From Escherichia coli (GTDB taxonomy: Bacteria > Pseudomonadota > Gammaproteobacteria > Enterobacterales > Enterobacteriaceae): a stretch of 64,000 nt of DNA. The first letter of the stretch is position 1. Each line of letters starts with the position of its first letter. Made by a program: the position numbers and the translations under genes. Below are positions 3,914-48,711 of this stretch, piece by piece. The notes below the pieces were generated by a model. It saw nothing but the letters and a program-made list of their open reading frames with translations, searched no databases and was not told the DNA's origin. Location of the stretch: the NCBI RefSeq assembly GCF_044324875.1, contig NZ_CP172185.1. One strand, given 5' to 3'.

Positions 3914-6900
3914 ATGATGGAAATTCTGCGTGGTTCGCCTGCATTGTCGGCATTCCGAATCAACAAACTGCTGGCACGTTTTCAGGCTGCCAGGCTCCCG
4001 GTTCACACTATTTACGCCGAGTATGTCCATTTTGCTGACCTCAATGCGCCGTTAAACGATGATGAGCACGCACAACTTGAACGCCTGCTGAAATATGGCC
4101 CGGCACTCGCCAGCCACGCCCCGCAAGGCAAACTCCTGCTGGTGACCCCGCGTCCTGGCACCATCTCTCCCTGGTCTTCGAAAGCGACCGATATTGCCCA
4201 TAACTGCGGGCTGCAACAGGTTAACCGCCTTGAGCGCGGCGTTGCTTACTATATAGAAGCCGGTACGCTGACCAATGAACAATGGCAGCAGGTTACCGCT
4301 GAACTGCACGACCGCATGATGGAAACGGTCTTTTTTGCTTTAGATGATGCAGAGCAGCTGTTTGCACACCATCAACCGACTCCGGTCACCAGCGTTGATT
4401 TGCTGGGGCAGGGCCGTCAGGCGCTAATCGACGCTAACCTGCGTCTTGGCCTGGCACTGGCGGAAGATGAAATTGACTATTTGCAGGATGCTTTCACAAA
4501 GCTTGGTCGTAACCCGAACGACATCGAACTGTATATGTTTGCCCAGGCGAACTCCGAGCACTGCCGCCACAAAATTTTTAACGCCGACTGGGTTATCGAT
4601 GGTGAACAGCAGCCGAAATCGCTGTTTAAGATGATCAAAAACACCTTCGAAACCACGCCGGATCACGTTCTCTCTGCTTATAAAGATAACGCCGCCGTAA
4701 TGGAAGGTTCTGAAGTGGGCCGCTACTTTGCTGACCACGAAACGGGCCGCTACGATTTCCATCAGGAACCGGCGCATATTCTGATGAAAGTCGAAACTCA
4801 CAACCACCCGACGGCGATTTCTCCGTGGCCGGGCGCGGCGACCGGTTCCGGCGGTGAAATCCGCGATGAAGGTGCCACCGGGCGCGGCGCGAAGCCGAAA
4901 GCTGGTTTGGTTGGTTTCTCCGTTTCCAACCTGCGAATTCCTGGCTTCGAACAACCGTGGGAAGAAGATTTCGGTAAGCCTGAGCGCATTGTCACCGCGC
5001 TGGACATCATGACCGAAGGCCCGCTGGGTGGCGCGGCATTTAACAACGAATTTGGTCGTCCGGCACTGAACGGCTACTTCCGTACTTATGAAGAAAAAGT
5101 GAATAGCCACAATGGCGAAGAGCTGCGCGGTTATCACAAACCGATCATGCTGGCGGGCGGGATCGGCAACATTCGCGCCGATCACGTACAAAAAGGCGAG
5201 ATCAACGTTGGTGCGAAGCTGGTCGTTCTCGGCGGCCCGGCAATGAACATCGGTCTTGGCGGCGGCGCGGCGTCTTCCATGGCGTCTGGTCAGTCTGATG
5301 CCGACCTCGACTTTGCTTCCGTACAGCGCGACAACCCGGAGATGGAGCGTCGCTGCCAGGAAGTGATCGACCGTTGCTGGCAGCTTGGTGATGCCAACCC
5401 AATCCTGTTTATCCACGACGTCGGCGCTGGCGGTCTTTCTAACGCCATGCCGGAACTGGTGAGCGACGGCGGGCGCGGCGGTAAATTCGAACTGCGCGAT
5501 ATCCTGAGCGACGAACCGGGCATGAGCCCGCTGGAAATCTGGTGTAACGAATCCCAGGAACGCTACGTGCTGGCGGTTGCTGCCGATCAGTTACCGCTGT
5601 TTGACGAACTGTGTAAGCGTGAGCGCGCGCCATACGCGGTGATTGGTGAAGCGACCGAAGAACTGCATCTTTCTTTGCACGATCGTCATTTTGATAATCA
5701 GCCGATCGATCTGCCGCTGGACGTCCTGCTTGGTAAAACGCCGAAGATGACCCGCGAAGTACAAACGCTGAAAGCGAAGGGTGATGCGCTGGTTCGTGAA
5801 GGGATCACCATCGCTGACGCGGTGAAACGCGTACTGCATCTGCCGACTGTGGCAGAGAAAACTTTCCTGGTGACCATCGGTGACCGCAGCGTAACTGGCA
5901 TGGTGGCGCGCGATCAGATGGTGGGTCCGTGGCAGGTGCCGGTCGCTAACTGCGCGGTCACTACCGCCAGCCTTGACAGCTACTATGGTGAAGCGATGGC
6001 GATTGGCGAGCGTGCGCCGGTTGCGCTGCTGGATTTCGCCGCCTCTGCCCGTCTGGCGGTCGGTGAAGCGTTAACCAATATTGCCGCAACACAGATTGGC
6101 GATATCAAACGCATTAAACTTTCCGCCAACTGGATGGCGGCGGCAGGCCACCCTGGTGAAGATGCGGGCCTGTATGAAGCCGTTAAAGCCGTGGGCGAAG
6201 AGCTTTGTCCGGCGCTGGGCCTGACGATCCCGGTGGGTAAAGACTCTATGTCGATGAAAACCCGCTGGCAGGAAGGTAACGAAGAGCGCGAAATGACGTC
6301 GCCGTTGTCGCTGGTGATTTCCGCATTTGCCCGCGTGGAAGATGTACGTCACACCATTACGCCGCAGCTTTCTACCGAAGATAACGCACTGCTGCTGATT
6401 GATTTGGGCAAAGGCAATAACGCGCTGGGCGCAACGGCGCTGGCGCAGGTTTATCGTCAGCTTGGCGACAAACCGGCAGATGTACGCGATGTCGCGCAAC
6501 TGAAAGGCTTCTATGACGCGGTTCAGGCGCTGGTAGCACAGCGTAAGCTGCTCGCGTACCACGACCGCTCTGATGGCGGCCTGCTGGTAACGCTGGCGGA
6601 AATGGCCTTTGCTGGTCATTGCGGCATTGACGCGGATATCGCCACTCTGGGTGACGATCGCCTGGCGGCGTTGTTTAACGAAGAACTGGGGGCGGTGATT
6701 CAGGTTCGTGCCGCTGACCGTGAAGCAGTTGAAGCGGTACTGGCACAGCATGGGCTTGCTGATTGCGTCCATTATGTTGGGCAGGCGGTTTCCGGTGACC
6801 GTTTTGTGATTACCGCCAACGGGCAGACTGTATTCAGCGAAAGCCGCACCACGTTGCGTGTCTGGTGGGCAGAAACTACCTGGCAGATGCAGCGCCTGCG

Positions 6901-41106: not shown

Positions 41107-41622
41107 ATGGATTACTTCACCCTCTTTGGCTTGCCTGCCCGTTATCAACTCGATACCCAGGCGCTGAGCCTGCGTTTTCAGGATCTACAACGTCAGTATC
41201 ATCCTGATAAATTTGCCAGCGGAAGCCAGGCGGAACAACTCGCCGCCGTACAGCAATCTGCAACCATTAACCAGGCCTGGCAAACGCTGCGTCATCCGTT
41301 AATGCGCGCGGAATATTTGCTTTCTTTGCACGGTTTTGATCTCGCCAGCGAGCAGCATACTGTGCGCGACACCGCGTTCCTGATGGAACAGCTGGAACTG
41401 CGCGAAGAACTGGACGAGATCGAACAGGCGAAAGATGAAGCGCGGCTGGAAAGCTTTATCAAACGTGTGAAAAAGATGTTTGATACCCGCCATCAGTTGA
41501 TGGTTGAACAGTTAGACAACGAGACGTGGGACGCGGCGGCGGATACCGTGCGTAAGCTGCGTTTTCTCGATAAACTGCGAAGCAGTGCCGAACAACTCGA
41601 AGAAAAACTGCTCGATTTTTAA
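41107..41622 (+). CDS. hscB: co-chaperone HscB (J-domain)
   Basis: 171-aa [13 protein letters not shown]...; J-domain HPD motif (QYHPDKF). Confidence 0.95.
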
Positions 41623-41638
41623 TTTCTGGAAGCTAAAC

Positions 41639-43489
41639 ATGGCCTTATTACAAATTAGTGAACCTGGTTTGAGTGCTGCGCCGCATCAGCGTCGTCTGGC
41701 GGCCGGTATTGACCTGGGCACAACCAACTCGCTGGTGGCGACAGTGCGCAGCGGTCAGGCCGAAACGTTAGCCGACCATGAAGGCCGTCACCTGCTGCCG
41801 TCTGTTGTTCACTATCAACAGCAAGGGCATTCGGTGGGTTATGACGCGCGTACTAACGCCGCGCTCGATACCGCCAACACCATTAGTTCTGTTAAACGCC
41901 TGATGGGGCGCTCGCTGGCTGATATCCAGCAACGCTATCCACATTTGCCTTATCAATTCCAGGCCAGCGAAAACGGCCTGCCGATGATTGAAACGGCGGC
42001 GGGGCTGCTGAACCCGGTGCGCGTTTCTGCGGACATCCTCAAAGCACTGGCGGCGCGGGCAACTGAAGCCCTGGCAGGCGAGCTGGATGGTGTCGTTATC
42101 ACCGTTCCGGCGTACTTTGACGATGCCCAGCGTCAGGGCACCAAAGACGCGGCGCGTCTGGCGGGCCTTCACGTCCTGCGCTTACTTAACGAACCGACCG
42201 CTGCGGCTATCGCCTACGGGCTGGATTCCGGTCAGGAAGGCGTGATCGCTGTTTATGACCTCGGCGGCGGGACGTTTGATATTTCCATTCTGCGCTTAAG
42301 TCGCGGCGTGTTTGAAGTGCTGGCGACCGGCGGTGATTCCGCGCTCGGCGGCGATGATTTCGACCATCTGCTGGCGGATTATATTCGCGAGCAGGCGGGC
42401 ATTCCTGATCGTAGCGATAACCGCGTTCAGCGTGAACTGCTGGATGCTGCCATTGCGGCCAAAATCGCGCTGAGCGATGCGGACTCCGTGACCGTTAACG
42501 TTGCGGGCTGGCAGGGCGAAATCAGCCGTGAACAATTCAACGAACTGATCGCGCCACTGGTAAAACGAACCTTACTGGCTTGTCGTCGTGCGCTGAAAGA
42601 CGCTGGCGTAGAAGCTGATGAAGTGCTGGAAGTGGTGATGGTTGGCGGTTCTACCCGCGTGCCGCTGGTGCGTGAACGGGTGGGCGAATTTTTCGGTCGT
42701 CCACCGCTGACTTCTATCGACCCGGATAAAGTCGTCGCTATTGGCGCGGCGATTCAGGCGGATATTCTGGTGGGTAACAAGCCGGACAGCGAAATGCTGT
42801 TGCTGGATGTGATCCCGCTGTCGCTGGGCCTCGAGACCATGGGCGGCCTGGTGGAGAAAGTGATCCCGCGTAATACCACGATTCCGGTGGCGCGCGCCCA
42901 GGATTTCACCACCTTTAAAGATGGTCAGACGGCAATGTCTATCCATGTGATGCAGGGTGAACGTGAACTGGTGCAGGACTGCCGCTCGCTGGCGCGTTTT
43001 GCACTGCGTGGTATCCCGGCGCTACCGGCTGGCGGCGCGCATATTCGCGTAACGTTCCAGGTCGATGCCGACGGTCTTTTGAGCGTGACGGCGATGGAGA
43101 AATCCACCGGCGTTGAGGCGTCTATTCAGGTCAAACCGTCTTACGGTCTGACCGATAGCGAAATCGCTTCGATGATCAAAGACTCAATGAGCTATGCCGA
43201 GCAGGACGTAAAAGCCCGTATGCTGGCAGAACAAAAAGTAGAAGCGGCGCGTGTGCTGGAAAGTCTGCACGGCGCGCTGGCTGCTGATGCCGCGCTGTTA
43301 AGCACCGCAGAGCGTCAGGTCATTGACGATGCTGCCGCTCACCTGAGTGAAGTGGCGCAGGGCGATGATGTTGACGCTATCGAACAAGCGATTAAAAACG
43401 TAGACAAACAAACCCAGGATTTCGCCGCTCGCCGCATGGACCAGTCGGTTCGTCGTGCGCTGAAAGGCCATTCCGTGGACGAGGTTTAA
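41639..43489 (+). CDS. hscA: Hsp70-type chaperone HscA
   Basis: 616-aa [13 protein letters not shown]... with Hsp70 motifs GIDLGTTNS and DLGGGTFD. Confidence 0.95.
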
Positions 43490-44038: not shown

Positions 44039-44074
44039 TTTCCGCGTCATGCTTCACGCCGCAGATGCGTTGGC

Positions 44075-44200
44075 TGCGCTCGTTCACCCCAGTCACATAG
44101 TTATCTATGCTCCTGGGGCTTCACTCACTTGCCGCGTGATTCGGCCTTTTGGCCTCACCCCTCCGGGGCCAGCGCAAGCGCTGTTCAAAACGCAATGCGT
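44075..44200. repeat. ERIC/IRU repeat element
   Basis: CGCTCGTTCACCCCAGTCAC...ATGCTCCTGGGGCTTCAC match both ERIC primer-site cores (reverse complement of AAGTAAGTGACTGGGGTGAGCG, and ATGTAAGCTCCTGGGGATTCAC); imperfect palindrome in the iscX-pepB spacer. Confidence 0.7.
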
Positions 44201-44282
44201 TTTGTCCTGCAACGCGAATCATTTAGCGGAAAAATCCTGGGGCTGCCAACTGGCGGCCCTTTTACAAAGAAGGATAACTAAA

Positions 44283-45566
44283 ATGACAGAAGCGATGAAG
44301 ATTACCCTCTCTACCCAACCTGCCGACGCGCGCTGGGGAGAAAAAGCGACTTACAGCATTAATAATGATGGCATTACCCTGCATTTGAACGGGGCAGACG
44401 ATCTGGGGCTGATCCAGCGTGCGGCGCGCAAGATTGACGGTCTGGGCATCAAGCATGTTCAGTTAAGCGGTGAAGACTGGGATGCGGATCGCTGCTGGGC
44501 ATTCTGGCAAGGTTACAAAGCCCCGAAAGGCACACGTAAAGTGGAGTGGCCGGATCTGGACGATGCCCAACGGCAGGAACTGGATAACCGCCTGATGATC
44601 ATCGACTGGGTGCGTGACACCATCAACGCACCGGCAGAAGAATTGGGACCATCGCAACTGGCACAGCGTGCTGTTGATCTGATCAGCAACGTCGCGGGCG
44701 ATCGTGTGACTTATCGGATCACCAAAGGTGAAGATCTGCGTGATCAAGGTTATATGGGGCTGCACACGGTCGGACGCGGTTCAGAACGTTCTCCGGTATT
44801 GCTGGCGCTGGATTACAACCCAACTGGCGATAAAGAAGCGCCAGTGTACGCGTGCCTGGTTGGTAAAGGCATCACCTTTGATTCCGGCGGCTACAGCATC
44901 AAACAGACCGCATTTATGGACTCGATGAAGTCGGACATGGGCGGCGCGGCAACGGTTACCGGGGCGCTGGCGTTTGCCATTACGCGCGGACTGAACAAGC
45001 GCGTGAAGCTGTTCCTCTGCTGTGCGGATAACCTGATCAGCGGCAACGCGTTCAAACTGGGCGATATTATTACCTATCGCAACGGTAAAAAAGTTGAAGT
45101 GATGAACACTGATGCGGAAGGGCGTCTGGTGCTGGCCGATGGCCTGATTGATGCCAGTGCGCAGAAACCGGAACTGATCATTGATGCGGCGACCCTCACC
45201 GGGGCGGCGAAAACTGCGCTGGGTAATGATTATCACGCGCTGTTCAGTTTTGACGATGCGCTTGCCGGTCGCTTGCTGGCGAGTGCCGCGCAGGAGAATG
45301 AACCGTTCTGGCGTCTGCCGCTGGCGGAGTTCCACCGCAGCCAGCTGCCGTCTAACTTTGCCGAACTGAACAATACCGGAAGCGCGGCGTACCCGGCAGG
45401 CGCGAGCACGGCGGCGGGCTTCCTGTCGCACTTTGTTGAGAACTATCAGCAAGGCTGGCTGCATATCGACTGCTCGGCGACTTACCGTAAAGCGCCGGTT
45501 GAACAGTGGTCTGCGGGTGCTACGGGACTTGGTGTGCGCACGATTGCTAATCTGTTAACGGCGTAA
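44283..45566 (+). CDS. pepB: aminopeptidase B (M17 leucyl-aminopeptidase family)
   Basis: 427-aa ORF from [15 protein letters not shown]...; M17 motif [12 protein letters not shown]. Confidence 0.93.
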
Positions 45567-45708: not shown

Positions 45709-46485
45709 ATGTCCGAAACAAAAAATGAACTTGAAGACCTGCTGGAAAAAGCAGCAACCGAACCGGCGCACCGCCCGGCCTTTTTCCGTACTCTACTGGA
45801 ATCCACCGTCTGGGTGCCGGGTACGGCGGCGCAGGGCGAGGCTGTGGTTGAAGATAGCGCGCTTGATTTACAGCACTGGGAAAAAGAAGACGGCACCAGC
45901 GTCATTCCTTTTTTTACCTCGTTAGAAGCACTTCAACAGGCGGTTGAAGACGAACAGGCATTTGTCGTAATGCCCGTTCGCACATTGTTTGAGATGACCC
46001 TTGGCGAAACGCTCTTCCTTAATGCCAAACTGCCAACCGGTAAAGAATTTATGCCGCGTGAAATCAGTTTGTTGATTGGTGAAGAAGGAAATCCGCTGAG
46101 CAGCCAGGAAGTACTGGAGGGCGGTGAATCGCTGATATTATCGGAAGTCGCAGAGCCACCAGCACAAATGATTGATTCTCTCACCACCTTATTTAAAACT
46201 ATTAAGCCGGTGAAGCGTGCTTTTATTTGTTCAATTAAAGAGAACGAAGAGTCACAGCCTAATTTACTTATTGGCATTGAAGCCGATGGTGATATCGAAG
46301 AAATTATTCAGGCGGCGGGAAGTGTAGCGACCGATACATTACCTGGCGATGAACCCATCGATATTTGTCAGGTGAAAAAAGGGGAAAAAGGAATTAGCCA
46401 CTTTATTACCGAACATATTGCGCCATTCTATGAACGTCGCTGGGGTGGTTTTTTGCGTGACTTTAAACAGCATCGGATAATCTAA
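45709..46485 (+). CDS. sseB: enhanced serine sensitivity protein SseB
   Basis: 258-aa ORF MSETKNELEDLLEKAATEPAHRPAFF...; synteny between pepB and sseA. Confidence 0.85.
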   Translation: MSETKNELEDLLEKAATEPAHRPAFFRTLLESTVWVPGTAAQGEAVVEDSALDLQHWEKEDGTSVIPFFTSLEALQQAVEDEQAFVVMPVRTLFEMTLGETLFLNAKLPTGKEFMPREISLLIGEEGNPLSSQEVLEGGESLILSEVAEPPAQMIDSLTTLFKTIKPVKRAFICSIKENEESQPNLLIGIEADGDIEEIIQAAGSVATDTLPGDEPIDICQVKKGEKGISHFITEHIAPFYERRWGGFLRDFKQHRII

Positions 46486-46802
46486 AATATGCCGCCCCAA
46501 AGGGCGGCATTCGGGCTTACTTGCTGCTCTGAAGTTTGTTAACCACCAGTAAATTGTTGCCGGAGAGACTCCGGTTATTATTTACCTCGGTTAACAGCGC
46601 ACCAGAAACAATAAGTACGATACAAAAGCACCGTATCTTCATTGTGCGGTCCATGCGAAGACCGCATCACGACAGCACCACTGGCGATATTGCCGCGATA
46701 GCAAGCGCTGAGACGCGCTTGCTCTAACGGTCGCGGAACATCCTTTCCTTAAGCCAGCGCCCGCTTGCGAGACGGCGGAAAGGGCCGCAGTGGATAATAC
46801 AC
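46486..46802 (-). ncRNA. ryfA: RyfA-like RNA copy 1 (putative small-protein toxin mRNA, TimP/RyfA type); 5' end approximate
   Basis: Minus-strand unit between a promoter-like TTGTCA-16-TATTGT (about 46837-46810) and terminator hairpin ATGCCGCCCTTTGGGGCGGCAT plus U-tract (46510-46486); about 310 nt; leader has SD-sequestering CCTTTCC/GGAAAGG stem. Confidence 0.6.
46517..46654 (-). CDS. hypothetical 45-aa small protein with hydrophobic N-terminal segment (candidate type I toxin)
   Basis: ORF MDRTMKIRCFCIVLIVSGALLTEVNNNRSLSGNNLLVVNKLQSSK verified codon by codon; identical in copy 2 except the last residues; no strong Shine-Dalgarno, so start codon uncertain. Confidence 0.35.
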   Translation of the reverse strand: MDRTMKIRCFCIVLIVSGALLTEVNNNRSLSGNNLLVVNKLQSSK

Positions 46803-46865
46803 TAACAGAACAATAATAACTCTCTTTTGCTTGACAAAAAGAGGGTTACTGGCGAGTATTGTCTC

Positions 46866-46962
46866 CGCTGAGACGCGCTTGCATTACTACGGTAATACAA
46901 CCTGCTGGAAAGGCCGCGAACCGGACCAGCAACAAAAAACCGCCTGATTTTGGCGGTTTTTT
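46866..46962 (+). ncRNA. putative sRNA 1, divergent from RyfA-like copy 1 (candidate antitoxin RNA, TimR-like)
   Basis: TTGACA (46831-46836) -17 bp- GAGTAT promoter; about 97 nt to intrinsic terminator AAAAAACCGCC-tgatttt-GGCGGTTTTTT (46935-46962); 5' 17 nt identical to the plus strand at 46706-46722. Confidence 0.5.
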
Positions 46963-47079
46963 GTTGTTTAAAGAAAGTGAATTTACATGTTCAAGTAATA
47001 TCTTTTATTGGTTAGTATTTTTAATATTAAGCGAAAATTGTTTATATTTGTCTGAATTCGGACTAATAAGCTAGGTTAT

Positions 47080-47163
47080 TTTATTACCGAACATATTGCG
47101 CCATTCTATGAACGTCGCTGGGGTGGTTTTTTGCGTGACTTTAAACAGAATGGGATAATTTAA
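47080..47163 (+). pseudogene. duplicated 3' fragment of sseB (about 27 C-terminal codons plus stop), non-functional remnant at the repeat junction
   Basis: TTTATTACCGAACATATTGCGCCATTCTATGAACGTCGCTGGGGTGGTTTTTTGCGTGACTTTAAACAG repeated from 46402-46470, followed by a diverged tail and TAA at 47161-47163. Confidence 0.8.
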
Positions 47164-47480
47164 AACATGCCGCCCCAAAGGGCGGCATTCGGGCTTACCT
47201 GCTGTTCTGAAGGTTGTTAACCACCAGTAAATTGTTGCCGGAGAGACTCCGGTTATTATTTACCTCGGTTAACAGCGCACCAGAAACAATAAGTACGATA
47301 CAAAAGCACCGTATCTTCATTGTGCGGTCCATGCGAAGACCGCATCACGACAGCACCACTGGCGATATTGCCGCGATAGCAAGCGCTGTGAAACACCTGC
47401 ATTTACGGCCATGGAACATCCTTTCCTTAAGCCAGCGCCCGTTTGCGAGACGGCGGAAAGGGCCGGTGTCGATAATACGC
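47164..47480 (-). ncRNA. ryfA: RyfA-like RNA copy 2; 5' end approximate
   Basis: Same architecture as copy 1, shifted by 678 bp; terminator hairpin at 47167-47188; leader diverged from copy 1. Confidence 0.6.
47195..47332 (-). CDS. hypothetical 45-aa small protein, paralogue of the 46517-46654 ORF
   Basis: Same ORF as copy 1 with three C-terminal substitutions (K to N, S to N, K to R); frame and length preserved. Confidence 0.35.
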   Translation of the reverse strand: MDRTMKIRCFCIVLIVSGALLTEVNNNRSLSGNNLLVVNNLQNSR

Positions 47481-47543
47481 TAAATAAACAATGATTACTG
47501 TCTTTCGCTTGACAAAAAGAGAGTTACTGGCGAGTATTGCTTT

Positions 47544-47644
47544 GCTGTGAAGCACCTGCGTTGCTCATGCAACACAAGCCAACCTGCTGGAAAGGCCGCG
47601 AACCAGACCAGCAATAAAAAACCGCCAAATTCGGCGGTTTTTTA
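47544..47644 (+). ncRNA. putative sRNA 2, divergent from RyfA-like copy 2 (candidate cognate antitoxin RNA)
   Basis: TTGACA (47509-47514) -17 bp- GAGTAT promoter; terminator AAAAAACCGCC-aaattc-GGCGGTTTTTT (47616-47645) also serves convergent sseA; 5' region matches the plus strand at 47384-47403 with G-U wobbles. Confidence 0.5.
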
Positions 47645-47659
47645 TTGCCTGTAAAAAGC

Positions 47660-48505
47660 TTATTTCAATGGCTCAACCGGTAAATCTGCCCGTGCGCCCC
47701 ATTCACTCCATGCGCCGTCGTACAGTTTCACGTTTGGCACATCAAGTGTCGCGAGTGCTAACAAAACCACGGCTGCCGTTACACCAGAGCCGCAGCTGAC
47801 GATAATCGGTTTGTCATAGCTGACGCCGCGACCAAAAAATATCGCATCCAGTTCATCGGTCGTTTTTAGTTCGCCTTCGCGCACCAGTTCCGTCCACGGA
47901 ACGTTCAATGCACCGGGAATATGTCCGCGACGTAAACCTGGGCGAGGTTCATCAACTTCTGCGTTAAAACGTGCAGCCGGGCGGGCATCAATAATTTGCG
48001 CCGTATTTTCATGGCTTGCCAATAACACATCGGTGACTTTCACCACGGCTTCAGGATTAAACGTGGCGTTAAACTCTCCTTCCGGCAGCTCTACTGCACC
48101 TTCTTCTAACAGCAGATCATCGCGCTGCCAGCCTGCAAGTCCACCCCCCAGAATCGACACTTTCTCTACACCAAAGGTGCGCAGCATCCACCATGCTCGT
48201 GGGGCTGAGAAAAGATTACCTTCGTCATAGACAATCAGGTGCTTATCCTGGTTAACGCCTAACTCACGCATCGCCACGGCGAACGTTTTCGGGCGCGGCA
48301 GCATGTGCGGAAGCGGGGAAGTGTGATCAGAAAGCGCTTCGATATCAAAAAACACTGCGCCGGGAATATGTCCATTCAGATACTCCTGAGCAACGTTACG
48401 ATCTTCCTGTCCAGGCGACGCCATGCGGGCATCGATAATCTGAATTTCCGGGTCATCAATATGTTCGGCGAGCCAGTCGGCTCCTACAAACCATGTCGTG
48501 GACAT
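47660..48505 (-). CDS. sseA: 3-mercaptopyruvate sulfurtransferase (tandem rhodanese)
   Basis: 281-aa ORF from MSTTWFVGADWLAEHIDDPEIQIIDARM; catalytic Cys motif SCGSGVTA; the six-frame ORF extends upstream to 48664. Confidence 0.9.
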   Translation of the reverse strand: MSTTWFVGADWLAEHIDDPEIQIIDARMASPGQEDRNVAQEYLNGHIPGAVFFDIEALSDHTSPLPHMLPRPKTFAVAMRELGVNQDKHLIVYDEGNLFSAPRAWWMLRTFGVEKVSILGGGLAGWQRDDLLLEEGAVELPEGEFNATFNPEAVVKVTDVLLASHENTAQIIDARPAARFNAEVDEPRPGLRRGHIPGALNVPWTELVREGELKTTDELDAIFFGRGVSYDKPIIVSCGSGVTAAVVLLALATLDVPNVKLYDGAWSEWGARADLPVEPLK

Positions 48506-48711
48506 AGGCATCTCCATTTTTGCCGGGGTTAGGCTAAATTGTCGGATGTTTAGTGAAATGCGACAAGCAAAAGAGGCTGATTTGGCTGTCTGAGCCACAA
48601 TTCTCACTAAAATTCGGATTGTATGGGCGTGATACTGAATTACATAACGTAAATTCTCACGCATAATAATTATTCGACGTTGCTAACGGGCCATTGTGGC
48701 AGGGATGAAAA

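Follow-up and report, generated by a model that had tools for sequence, protein, structure and literature searches.

Two putative tandem timPR modules with differing antitoxin seeds and leader targets between sseB and sseA of Escherichia coli

The enterobacterial type I toxin-antitoxin locus timPR, called ryfA/ryfB in older work, has its closest described representatives in Shigella dysenteriae and Salmonella. A stretch of 64,000 nucleotides from Escherichia coli (contig NZ_CP172185.1; hereafter the window, numbered from its first letter) very probably carries, judging from its sequence, two tandem copies of this locus in the sseB-sseA interval. In S. dysenteriae, Fris et al. (2017, Genes 8:50; PMC5333039) described tandem genes ryfA1 and ryfA2 that are 95% identical and differ in a variable region, CGCGT versus TGTTT. 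RNA-seq found transcripts of ~100 nt divergent to each ryfA, named ryfB1 and ryfB2 (60% identical), and a complementarity of 17 nt between RyfA1 and RyfB1 extends across the variable region. Overproduced RyfB1 decreases RyfA1 and not RyfA2, a behavior that the authors likened to that of zorO-orzO.

It was subsequently reported that ryfA encodes the toxin TimP, which is toxic in Salmonella and is translated when timR is deleted (Andresen 2020; PMC7667032). There, 18 nt of the TimR 5' end pair with timP's 5' untranslated region (UTR), as established with compensatory mutations and in vitro translation, at a site located more than 60 nt upstream of the ribosome-binding site (RBS). All enterobacteria examined in that report (Fig. 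8B) have a complementary, species-specific and terminator-bearing small RNA (sRNA) upstream of timP on the opposite strand. Later work (Eleftheraki & Holmqvist 2024, PMC11228461; Nucleic Acids Research 2026, PMC13000454) showed that TimR binds the loop of stem-loop 2 (SL2) of the leader and opens it, and that this opening abolishes a pseudoknot between SL1 and SL3 required for translation initiation. The tandem arrangement, the 17-nt complementarity, the selectivity of RyfB1 and the mechanism of TimR are consequently matters of published record and have little weight here as discoveries; a sequence-only reading of the window, on which the present analysis followed up, had not recognised the tandem pair as already published.

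Evidence for the assignment was drawn from sequences, family membership, duplex energies and covariation. Megablast against 5426 complete E. coli genomes, which also underlie all population counts given below, placed the segment between sseB and sseA with an identity ceiling of 98.8% for the locus, and an open reading frame (ORF) of the size of sseA lies at 47660-48664 on the minus strand. Probing the window for IS1 ends, as a sign of Shigella origin, gave no hit. Alignment of the two units with each other gave a unit length of ~678 bp, unit 1 covering about 46404-47081 and unit 2 running from 47082 to about 47660, both of which open with the last ~80 nt of sseB. The sseB 3' end that starts unit 2 (47082-47161, plus strand) is a copy of 46404-46483, and in E. 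coli HCP5S3_I2 the annotation lists its equivalent as a partial sseB pseudogene; some E. coli strains likewise annotate timP twice between sseB and sseA, with the partial sseB pseudogene between the copies.

Each unit comprises a minus-strand ryfA mRNA of ~305 nt, in which a structured leader of ~146 nt precedes an ORF for a TimP of 41 aa, and a divergent plus-strand sRNA of ~100 nt (TimR/RyfB) located some 78 nt past the 5' end of the mRNA. The mRNA of timP-1 (ryfA1, module 1; 46484-46788) and that of timP-2 (ryfA2, module 2; 47162-47466) matched Rfam family RF00126 over its full length, with 313.6 bits (model positions 1-296) and 319.2 bits, respectively, for a gathering score of 80. Their minus-strand ORFs, TimP-1 (MKIRCFCIVLIVSGALLTEVNNNRSLSGNNLLVVNKLQSSK; 46517-46642) and TimP-2 (…VVNNLQNSR; 47195-47320), scored 83.9 and 84.2 bits with the NCBIfam model NF040796 (toxic_TimP), whose cut-off is 45 bits, and the ORF equivalent to TimP-1 is named timP by RefSeq in E. 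coli. By analogy with the characterised system, each unit would encode the inner-membrane toxin TimP, a small protein of about 40 aa that has a signal-like hydrophobic segment at its N-terminus. The variable region contains CGCGT in ryfA1, as in the ryfA1 class of Fris et al., and TGTTT in ryfA2, as in their ryfA2 class and in the target of strains K-12 and CE10.

The sequence-only reading had proposed that the 5' end of each sRNA can pair with the leader of its own module, and both duplexes were recovered exactly where it had placed them. In module 1, the same 17-mer CGCTGAGACGCGCTTGC occurs at 46866-46882, in the sRNA, and at 46706-46722, in the leader; the one RNA being read from the plus strand and the other from the minus strand, 17 Watson-Crick pairs can therefore be formed. 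In module 2, the segments 47543-47562 (TGCTGTGAAGCACCTGCGTT) and 47384-47403 (CGCTGTGAAACACCTGCATT) differ at three positions, all of which yield G:U, giving 17 Watson-Crick and 3 G:U pairs and no mismatch. The full target of sRNA 1 (46706-46726, minus strand; mRNA 63-83) consists of the 5' arm, the loop and the first 3'-arm bases of a predicted SL2 hairpin located 64-84 nt upstream of the TimP AUG, and that of sRNA 2 (47384-47403, minus strand; mRNA 64-83) also lies in SL2, a position that agrees with the TimR site of Salmonella. Both duplexes proved longer than first noted: the copy-1 duplex comprises 17+3+5 bp and the copy-2 duplex about 22+4 bp. Homology to K-12 timR places the sRNA 5' ends probably one nucleotide later than had been assumed (46867 and 47544), so that the first pair of each duplex may fall outside the transcript.

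The energies of the sRNA 5' ends against their own leaders were -44.0 kcal/mol (copy 1) and -42.9 kcal/mol (copy 2). When each sRNA 5' end was shuffled 1000 times with its dinucleotides preserved, the values were -22.6 +/- 2.9 and -23.1 +/- 3.2 kcal/mol, which corresponds to z-scores of -7.2 and -6.2. A search over 46480-47660 for direct repeats of 14 nt or more lying no further than 300 nt apart returned the 17-mer pair, with a spacing of 160, and no other. Over the whole window, one other 17-mer recurred off the tandem offset; this repeat (TCGTCGTGCGCTGAAAG; 42583-42599 and 43450-43466, plus strand) is internal to a 634-aa ORF (41585-43489) and is probably a coincidental coding similarity.

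Conservation of the pairing was then considered across enterobacteria. A genome scan by the SL4-hairpin pattern GCGGTCNNNGCANNGACCGCAC was too unspecific, and the matches listed came mostly from GC-rich unrelated genomes, with 15 usable enterobacterial loci among them. Together with E. coli records, these provided 18 ryfA modules. Despite widely differing sequences, the best complementarity between leader and divergent upstream region fell at the same place in 15 of the 18 (mRNA about 64-86), and in these 15 modules the sRNA started 64-82 nt past the 5' end of the mRNA. The covariation alignment comprised 15 distinct seed-target pairs, 14 from these modules and one from a third E. coli allele (strain 2009C-3378); the genera represented are Escherichia, Citrobacter, Superficieibacter, Yersinia, Rahnella and Erwinia. 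Pairing was found in 96% of its cells, whereas shuffled partners reached 80.2 +/- 1.3 (0/500) and slid registers 28-51%. Changes on both sides affected 10 of 20 pairs, loop columns displayed up to four Watson-Crick pair types without any mismatch, and mean duplex energies amounted to -43.8 kcal/mol for cognate versus -28.6 kcal/mol for non-cognate combinations. These figures confirm and quantify the qualitative report of Andresen 2020 (PMC7667032).

Two observations weigh on the other side. The counting windows were picked on the diagonal of best complementarity, which favours pairing, and three of the 18 modules (Citrobacter amalonaticus, Yersinia aleksiciae and Yersinia similis), excluded from the covariation set, had no convincing seed within 330 nt. 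In Y. similis (locus record L069), a match to Rfam family Ysr224 at 4361-4467 occupies the expected place of TimR, upstream of ryfA (4554-4837), and was called on the same strand as ryfA; its complementarity to the leader is weak (12 Watson-Crick, 4 G:U and 2 mismatches over 18), and this locus may be a degenerate module or a case of strand mis-assignment.

Might the repeats be due to chance, or be a by-product of the palindromic SL2 stem without any pairing function? The two copies share the SL2 3' arm, GCGCUUGC, which the copy-1 seed also contains, so that part of the copy-1 match is expected from any copy of the arm. However, the loop is also part of the match, and the two vary together across 15 modules, 10 of 20 pairs being doubly changed, the shuffled controls are remote, and compensatory mutations were effective in Salmonella (PMC7667032). 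On the strength of the z-scores, the covariation and the published genetics a chance origin was rejected, and we hold a non-functional origin to be extremely improbable. The earlier proposal of cognate antitoxin-sRNA/toxin-mRNA pairs of the TimR-TimP kind is, in turn, backed by published experiments (PMC5333039, PMC7667032).

Differences between the two units concentrate exactly at the seed and target sites. None was found over 46536-46710 (TimP N-terminus, SL4 and SL3), about 11 were found in the 24 nt of 46711-46734 (SL2 5' arm and loop), and a second dense cluster covers 46862-46900, the sRNA 5' region. The specificity determinants are a loop UCUCAG with a seed CUGAGA in module 1, and a loop UUCACA with a seed UGUGAA in module 2. 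Since the modules carry different determinants, each sRNA is expected to prefer its own mRNA. RNAduplex applied to full sRNA and full leader returned unrealistic end-to-end duplexes (-66 to -77 kcal/mol), and this procedure was replaced by a pairing test of the sRNA 5' 32-35 nt against leader positions 41-115, supplemented with a simple estimate of opening energies. With targets designated A1 and A2, and seeds B1 and B2, according to their module, the cognate hybridisation energies were -44.0 kcal/mol (B1-A1) and -39.5 kcal/mol (B2-A2), versus -33.4 kcal/mol (B1-A2) and -29.5 kcal/mol (B2-A1, in a shifted register) for the non-cognate ones. Cognate pairs were thus better by about 10 kcal/mol in hybridisation.

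The sequence-only reading had further put the part common to sRNA 1 and the copy-2 target at about 5 nt only. This was incorrect: 12 of 17 positions are identical, three more give G:U and two are mismatched, and it is the contiguous identity that is confined to the first five positions. Two facts accordingly speak against a strict separation of the modules, namely that B1 can pair at 15 of 17 positions with target 2 in the homologous register (12 Watson-Crick, 3 G:U) and that, once opening energies are included, B1-A2 (-11.5) equals B2-A2 (-11.4). Thermodynamics alone are no guarantee of insulation between the modules. It could thus be supposed that repression crosses between the modules, with at least one of the sRNAs acting on both mRNAs, and that the duplication mainly provides dosage or redundancy, a view with which these B1-A2 energies would agree, as would the roughly 1570 E. 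coli genomes, K-12 included, in which a B1-type sRNA appears to be retained next to an A2-type timP. We nevertheless regard it as unlikely. Excess RyfB1 decreased RyfA1 and not RyfA2 in S. dysenteriae (PMC5333039), and both B1-A2 mismatches are situated in the SL2 loop, where TimR nucleates. In the other direction, B2 shows 4 mismatches out of 17 on target 1 in the homologous register, and its best duplex there, in the shifted register, becomes unfavourable after opening costs (+8.5). We infer that RyfB2 would be specific for RyfA2. What interest the locus retains lies in its use as a natural specificity experiment on a well-understood RNA switch, in which two seed/loop variants (three in E. 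coli) on an almost invariant scaffold would define the nucleotides that discriminate a cognate from a non-cognate antitoxin.

Strain K-12 deserves separate mention. RefSeq annotates ryfA, timP and timR at its sseB-sseA locus, and K-12 MG1655 (NC_000913.3) additionally carries, at about 2,653,681-2,653,776 on the minus strand (locus record L124; also L122, 1066-1160), an intact, unannotated gene of a RyfB1-type sRNA with promoter, seed CGCTGAGACGCGCTTGC and terminator. This gene adjoins a timP with an A2-type target and is therefore non-cognate to it; the annotated, B2-type timR (b4811) follows about 400 nt further, past the IS128 spacer and past a stub, 17 nt long, left from the 5' end of a second ryfA. 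Population counts suggest that about 1570 genomes share this combination, a figure obtained as the difference of aggregate counts (4549 with B1 minus 2981 with A1) on the assumption that every genome with an A1 target also has a B1 seed. In the literature, which was covered incompletely, neither the orphan sRNA of K-12 nor allele classes with linked seed and target were found to be described. K-12 itself and studies of ryfA and timR deletions in uropathogenic E. coli (UPEC) and in avian pathogenic E. coli (APEC) are concerned by this arrangement, which in K-12 and many other strains puts a second, non-cognate and unannotated TimR-like sRNA beside timP.

Distribution of the two specificities among genomes bears on the origin of the tandem. 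The A1-type target was found in 2981 genomes and the B1-type seed in 4549, the A2-type target in 1969 and the B2-type seed in 2096, while a junction diagnostic of two full units was found in 156. Architectures include A1B1-A2B2 (the window and HCP5S3_I2), the reverse order A2B2-A1B1 (WWCOL-236), a single A1/B1 module (O26:H11), a single A2/B2 module (CE10), a third allele that is likewise accompanied by a matching seed (2009C-3378 and SCPM) and the K-12 type, consisting of an A2-type timP, the adjacent non-cognate B1-type sRNA, the IS128 spacer, the 17-nt stub and the annotated B2-type timR. In WWCOL-236 (L127, 696-1560), A2/B2 stands beside sseB and A1/B1 beside sseA, and every target adjoins its cognate seed. 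The third specificity class (2009C-3378, L126, 696-890; also L016 and L056) has the target CACTGTGGGGTG(C/T)CTG and a matching seed, and corresponds to the CACCC/CCCCC variable-region classes of Fris et al. (PMC5333039); in 2009C-3378, the promoter region of its sRNA differs (TTGACACAGCCAGG…).

It had been claimed that both partners changed together and that they diversified to avoid cross-talk. Both partners do differ between the copies and still pair, but a change subsequent to duplication in situ is not established, nor is diversification against cross-talk, as both specificities occur as single-copy alleles, the order is reversed in WWCOL-236 and a third allele exists. We lean, with limited confidence, towards the view that the specificities are older, discrete timPR haplotypes of Escherichia rather than products of co-variation after duplication in situ. 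These would have been joined by recombination, or would be survivors of an old array after loss of a unit in most strains, and gene conversion would then have homogenised all but the specificity region. Single-module strains of either type exist at the same locus (O26:H11 for A1/B1, CE10 for A2/B2), the A1/B1-like module of Escherichia whittamii differs at 2 of 26 target positions and at none of 50 in SL1, the module order of WWCOL-236 is opposite to that of the window, and the third class CACTGTGGGGTG comes with a matching seed of its own. On account of these single-copy alleles, the E. whittamii module, the reversed order and the third allele, the tandem array may combine two older haplotypes. 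Class-specific differences also reach into SL1 as a linked haplotype common to E. whittamii, and the counts point the same way, 156 two-unit junctions being recorded against 2981 A1 and 1969 A2 targets. Over the 175-nt body, copy 1 of the window shows a single difference from copy 2 and seven from the orthologous A1 module of O26; being closer to its neighbour than to its ortholog, it suggests concerted evolution. Against this, the body is strongly constrained across Escherichia (1-12 differences), so that small difference counts carry little phylogenetic weight; the base-by-base comparison covers about a dozen modules only, and array-first and alleles-first orders of events are both compatible with the data. 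Within this small sample, the sequences suggest old specificity haplotypes with homogenisation inside the array, rather than fresh co-variation after duplication.

A broader proposal is tentative, and we consider it possible rather than probable: Escherichia may keep at least three discrete, linked timPR specificity haplotypes (target loop, SL1 and seed) that are held apart by selection. For neither specificity do toxin targets seem to exceed the cognate seeds in number (2981 A1 for 4549 B1; 1969 A2 for 2096 B2), orphan antitoxins are retained, as in K-12, and tandem copies appear homogenised everywhere except at the specificity determinants. If the proposal holds, selection would act against recombinants in which target and seed have come apart, and the locus would act as a small intraspecific incompatibility locus.

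Repression in both copies can be outlined by analogy with Salmonella, whose mechanism we infer to apply here. The 5' end of each sRNA would pair with the loop and the 5' arm of SL2 in the leader of its own mRNA, nucleating on the loop, invading the stem and displacing the 3' arm; the copy-1 sRNA carries the same GCGCUUGC as this arm. The SL1-SL3 pseudoknot is required to free a Shine-Dalgarno sequence trapped in SL4, and since an opened SL2 would prevent its formation, TimP would not be translated. The features of timPR that could be recognised in the window are the ryfA family, the TimP ORFs, the divergent sRNA with its SL2 complementarity, the pseudoknot and SL4 elements and the position between sseB and sseA. 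The pseudoknot halves, found by sequence search, are CGCUGGC in SL1 (copy 1: 46753-46759, minus strand; mRNA 30-36) and GCCAGUG (copy 1: 46679-46685, minus strand; mRNA 104-110). Intact and identical in both copies, they correspond at the sequence level to the 7-bp SL1-SL3 pseudoknot, and the SL4 hairpin GCGGUC…GACCGC is present, at that same level, in the Rfam alignment. An upstream ORF (uORF) overlaps the sRNA site, at 46724-46741 (minus strand; 5 codons, MFRDR) in copy 1 and at 47395-47419 (minus strand; 24 codons) in copy 2, where it is longer because the variable region removes the stop; this change of length fits the published dispensability of the uORF.

A role of the locus as a toxin-antitoxin system is not the sole reading in the literature. 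No protein was detected from ryfA1 in S. dysenteriae (PMC5333039), and studies in E. coli treat RyfA as a regulatory RNA, both of which weigh against a toxin-based interpretation. RyfA1 and RyfA2 could mainly be trans-acting regulatory RNAs, directed at ompC in Shigella and at stress and fimbrial genes in UPEC and APEC, with RyfB/TimR as titrating anti-sRNAs that are not primarily antitoxins. Overproduction of RyfA1 abolishes ompC mRNA and cell-to-cell spread (PMC5333039), and the phenotypes of ryfA deletions in UPEC and APEC are suppressed by an additional deletion of timR. We find this account doubtful, given that both copies retain an intact ORF passing the TimP model, that the leader elements for TimP translation are intact, and that TimP is toxic in Salmonella and translated upon deletion of timR (PMC7667032). 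The two roles are moreover not mutually exclusive, and pairing between sRNA and leader would be the same in either case.

The putative sRNA genes were delimited as follows. sRNA 1 (RyfB1-type TimR; 46866-46962, plus strand), with a 5' end at 46867 by homology to K-12 timR b4811, consists of the seed (46866-46882), a small hairpin, a conserved hairpin CUGCUGGAAAGGCCGCGAACCGGACCAGCA and a terminator, predicted by folding, with CCGCC at 46940-46944, GGCGG at 46952-46956 and a U-run to 46962. sRNA 2 (RyfB2, i.e. TimR as annotated in K-12; 47544-47643, plus strand, 100 nt) is collinear with b4811 (GCTGTGAAGCACCTGCGTT…GGCGGTTTTTT), from which its 5' end was taken; its seed forms the 5' end and a terminator hairpin is predicted, the CCGCC/GGCGG hairpin followed by a U-run being found at the 3' end of both sRNAs. 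A putative promoter of sRNA 1 (46831-46859, plus strand), read from the sequence, combines TTGACA (46831-46836) and GAGTAT (46854-46859) at a distance of 17 nt, and this promoter-like site is conserved in copy 2 and in K-12. In copy 2, the homologous putative promoter of sRNA 2 (47509-47537, plus strand) has TTGACA at 47509-47514 and GAGTAT at 47532-47537, again 17 nt apart. On the negative side, a consensus scanner flagged neither the promoters nor the terminators of the sRNAs in either copy, for the sRNA 1 promoter because its -10 matches at only 3 of 6 positions, and these elements therefore rest on sequence reading, predicted folds and homology to K-12 timR.

Within 46810-46859, the -35 hexamers of the divergent promoters are arranged back to back with an overlap: TTGACA occupies 46831-46836 of the plus strand, and TTGTCA, which the scanner flagged in copy 1 only, lies at 46837-46832 of the minus strand. 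A nearly invariant motif, CUGGAAAGGCCGC, occupies the second hairpin of all TimR homologues examined (46904-46917 and 47584-47597 in the window, plus strand). It is complementary, with one bulge, to the 5' end of the timP mRNA, GCGGCCCUUUCC, in the lower SL1 stem (46777-46788 and 47455-47466, minus strand), and might serve as an additional contact or, alternatively, as a site for protein binding; both sides are almost invariant and hence uninformative for covariation.

Two further RNA matches were recorded in the window. The Rfam family IS128 RNA (RF00125) matched 46920-47130 on the minus strand with 210.6 bits, a segment that takes in the sRNA 1 terminator, an AT-rich spacer and the first part of the sseB 3' fragment that was duplicated, and that spans the duplication junction; the match looks like a junction relic of the timPR duplication and not an independent RNA gene. 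A marginal match to Rfam family AaHKsRNA22 (44140-44212, minus strand; 45.3 bits for a gathering score of 39.8) covers a GC-rich hairpin set just upstream of a 505-aa ORF (44049-45566) and looks like a repetitive extragenic palindromic (REP) or terminator-like element.

The locus is a family member on every feature that could be tested here and the tandem arrangement is published, and for these reasons it has to be considered as already known. Formal covariation statistics, allele classes with linked seeds, the reversed module order and the K-12 orphan sRNA are modest new points, to be taken as leads for follow-up and not as a separate discovery.

Comparison with known systems places the window nearest to the ryfA1/B1-ryfA2/B2 pair of S. 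dysenteriae, with which it shares the tandem, the divergent ~100-nt sRNAs, the 17-nt complementarity and the CGCGT/TGTTT variable regions. Fris et al. (2017), however, treated RyfA as non-coding, did not describe pairing between RyfB2 and RyfA2, and drew no connection between the remaining variable-region classes and RyfB seeds that match them. With timP/TimR of Salmonella, the window has in common the RNA family, the TimP family, the SL2 site, the pseudoknot halves and a complementarity of the sRNA 5' end, which is continuous over 18 nt in Salmonella. The uORF over the sRNA site has 8 codons there, where it is dispensable (PMC11228461), as compared with 5 and 24 codons in copies 1 and 2 of the window. 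Salmonella and most strains possess one module, whereas the window has two with distinct specificities.

Among other type I systems, zorO-orzO/zorP-orzP of E. coli O157:H7 are tandemly duplicated modules with a divergent, non-overlapping sRNA, complementarity to about 18 nt of the toxin mRNA 5' UTR and discrimination between the paralogous sRNAs. Their likeness to timPR lies in the tandem, the divergent sRNA and the pairing in the 5' UTR, while toxin and RNA sequences are unrelated; the zorO mRNA is activated by processing, whereas the timP mRNA is unprocessed and uses a pseudoknot switch. The Sib/Ibs modules of E. coli K-12 are multi-copy type I systems in which each antisense RNA represses its cognate mRNA only, by means of few variable recognition nucleotides. 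Sib RNAs are fully overlapping cis-antisense RNAs, whereas TimR is encoded beside its target and not opposite to it.

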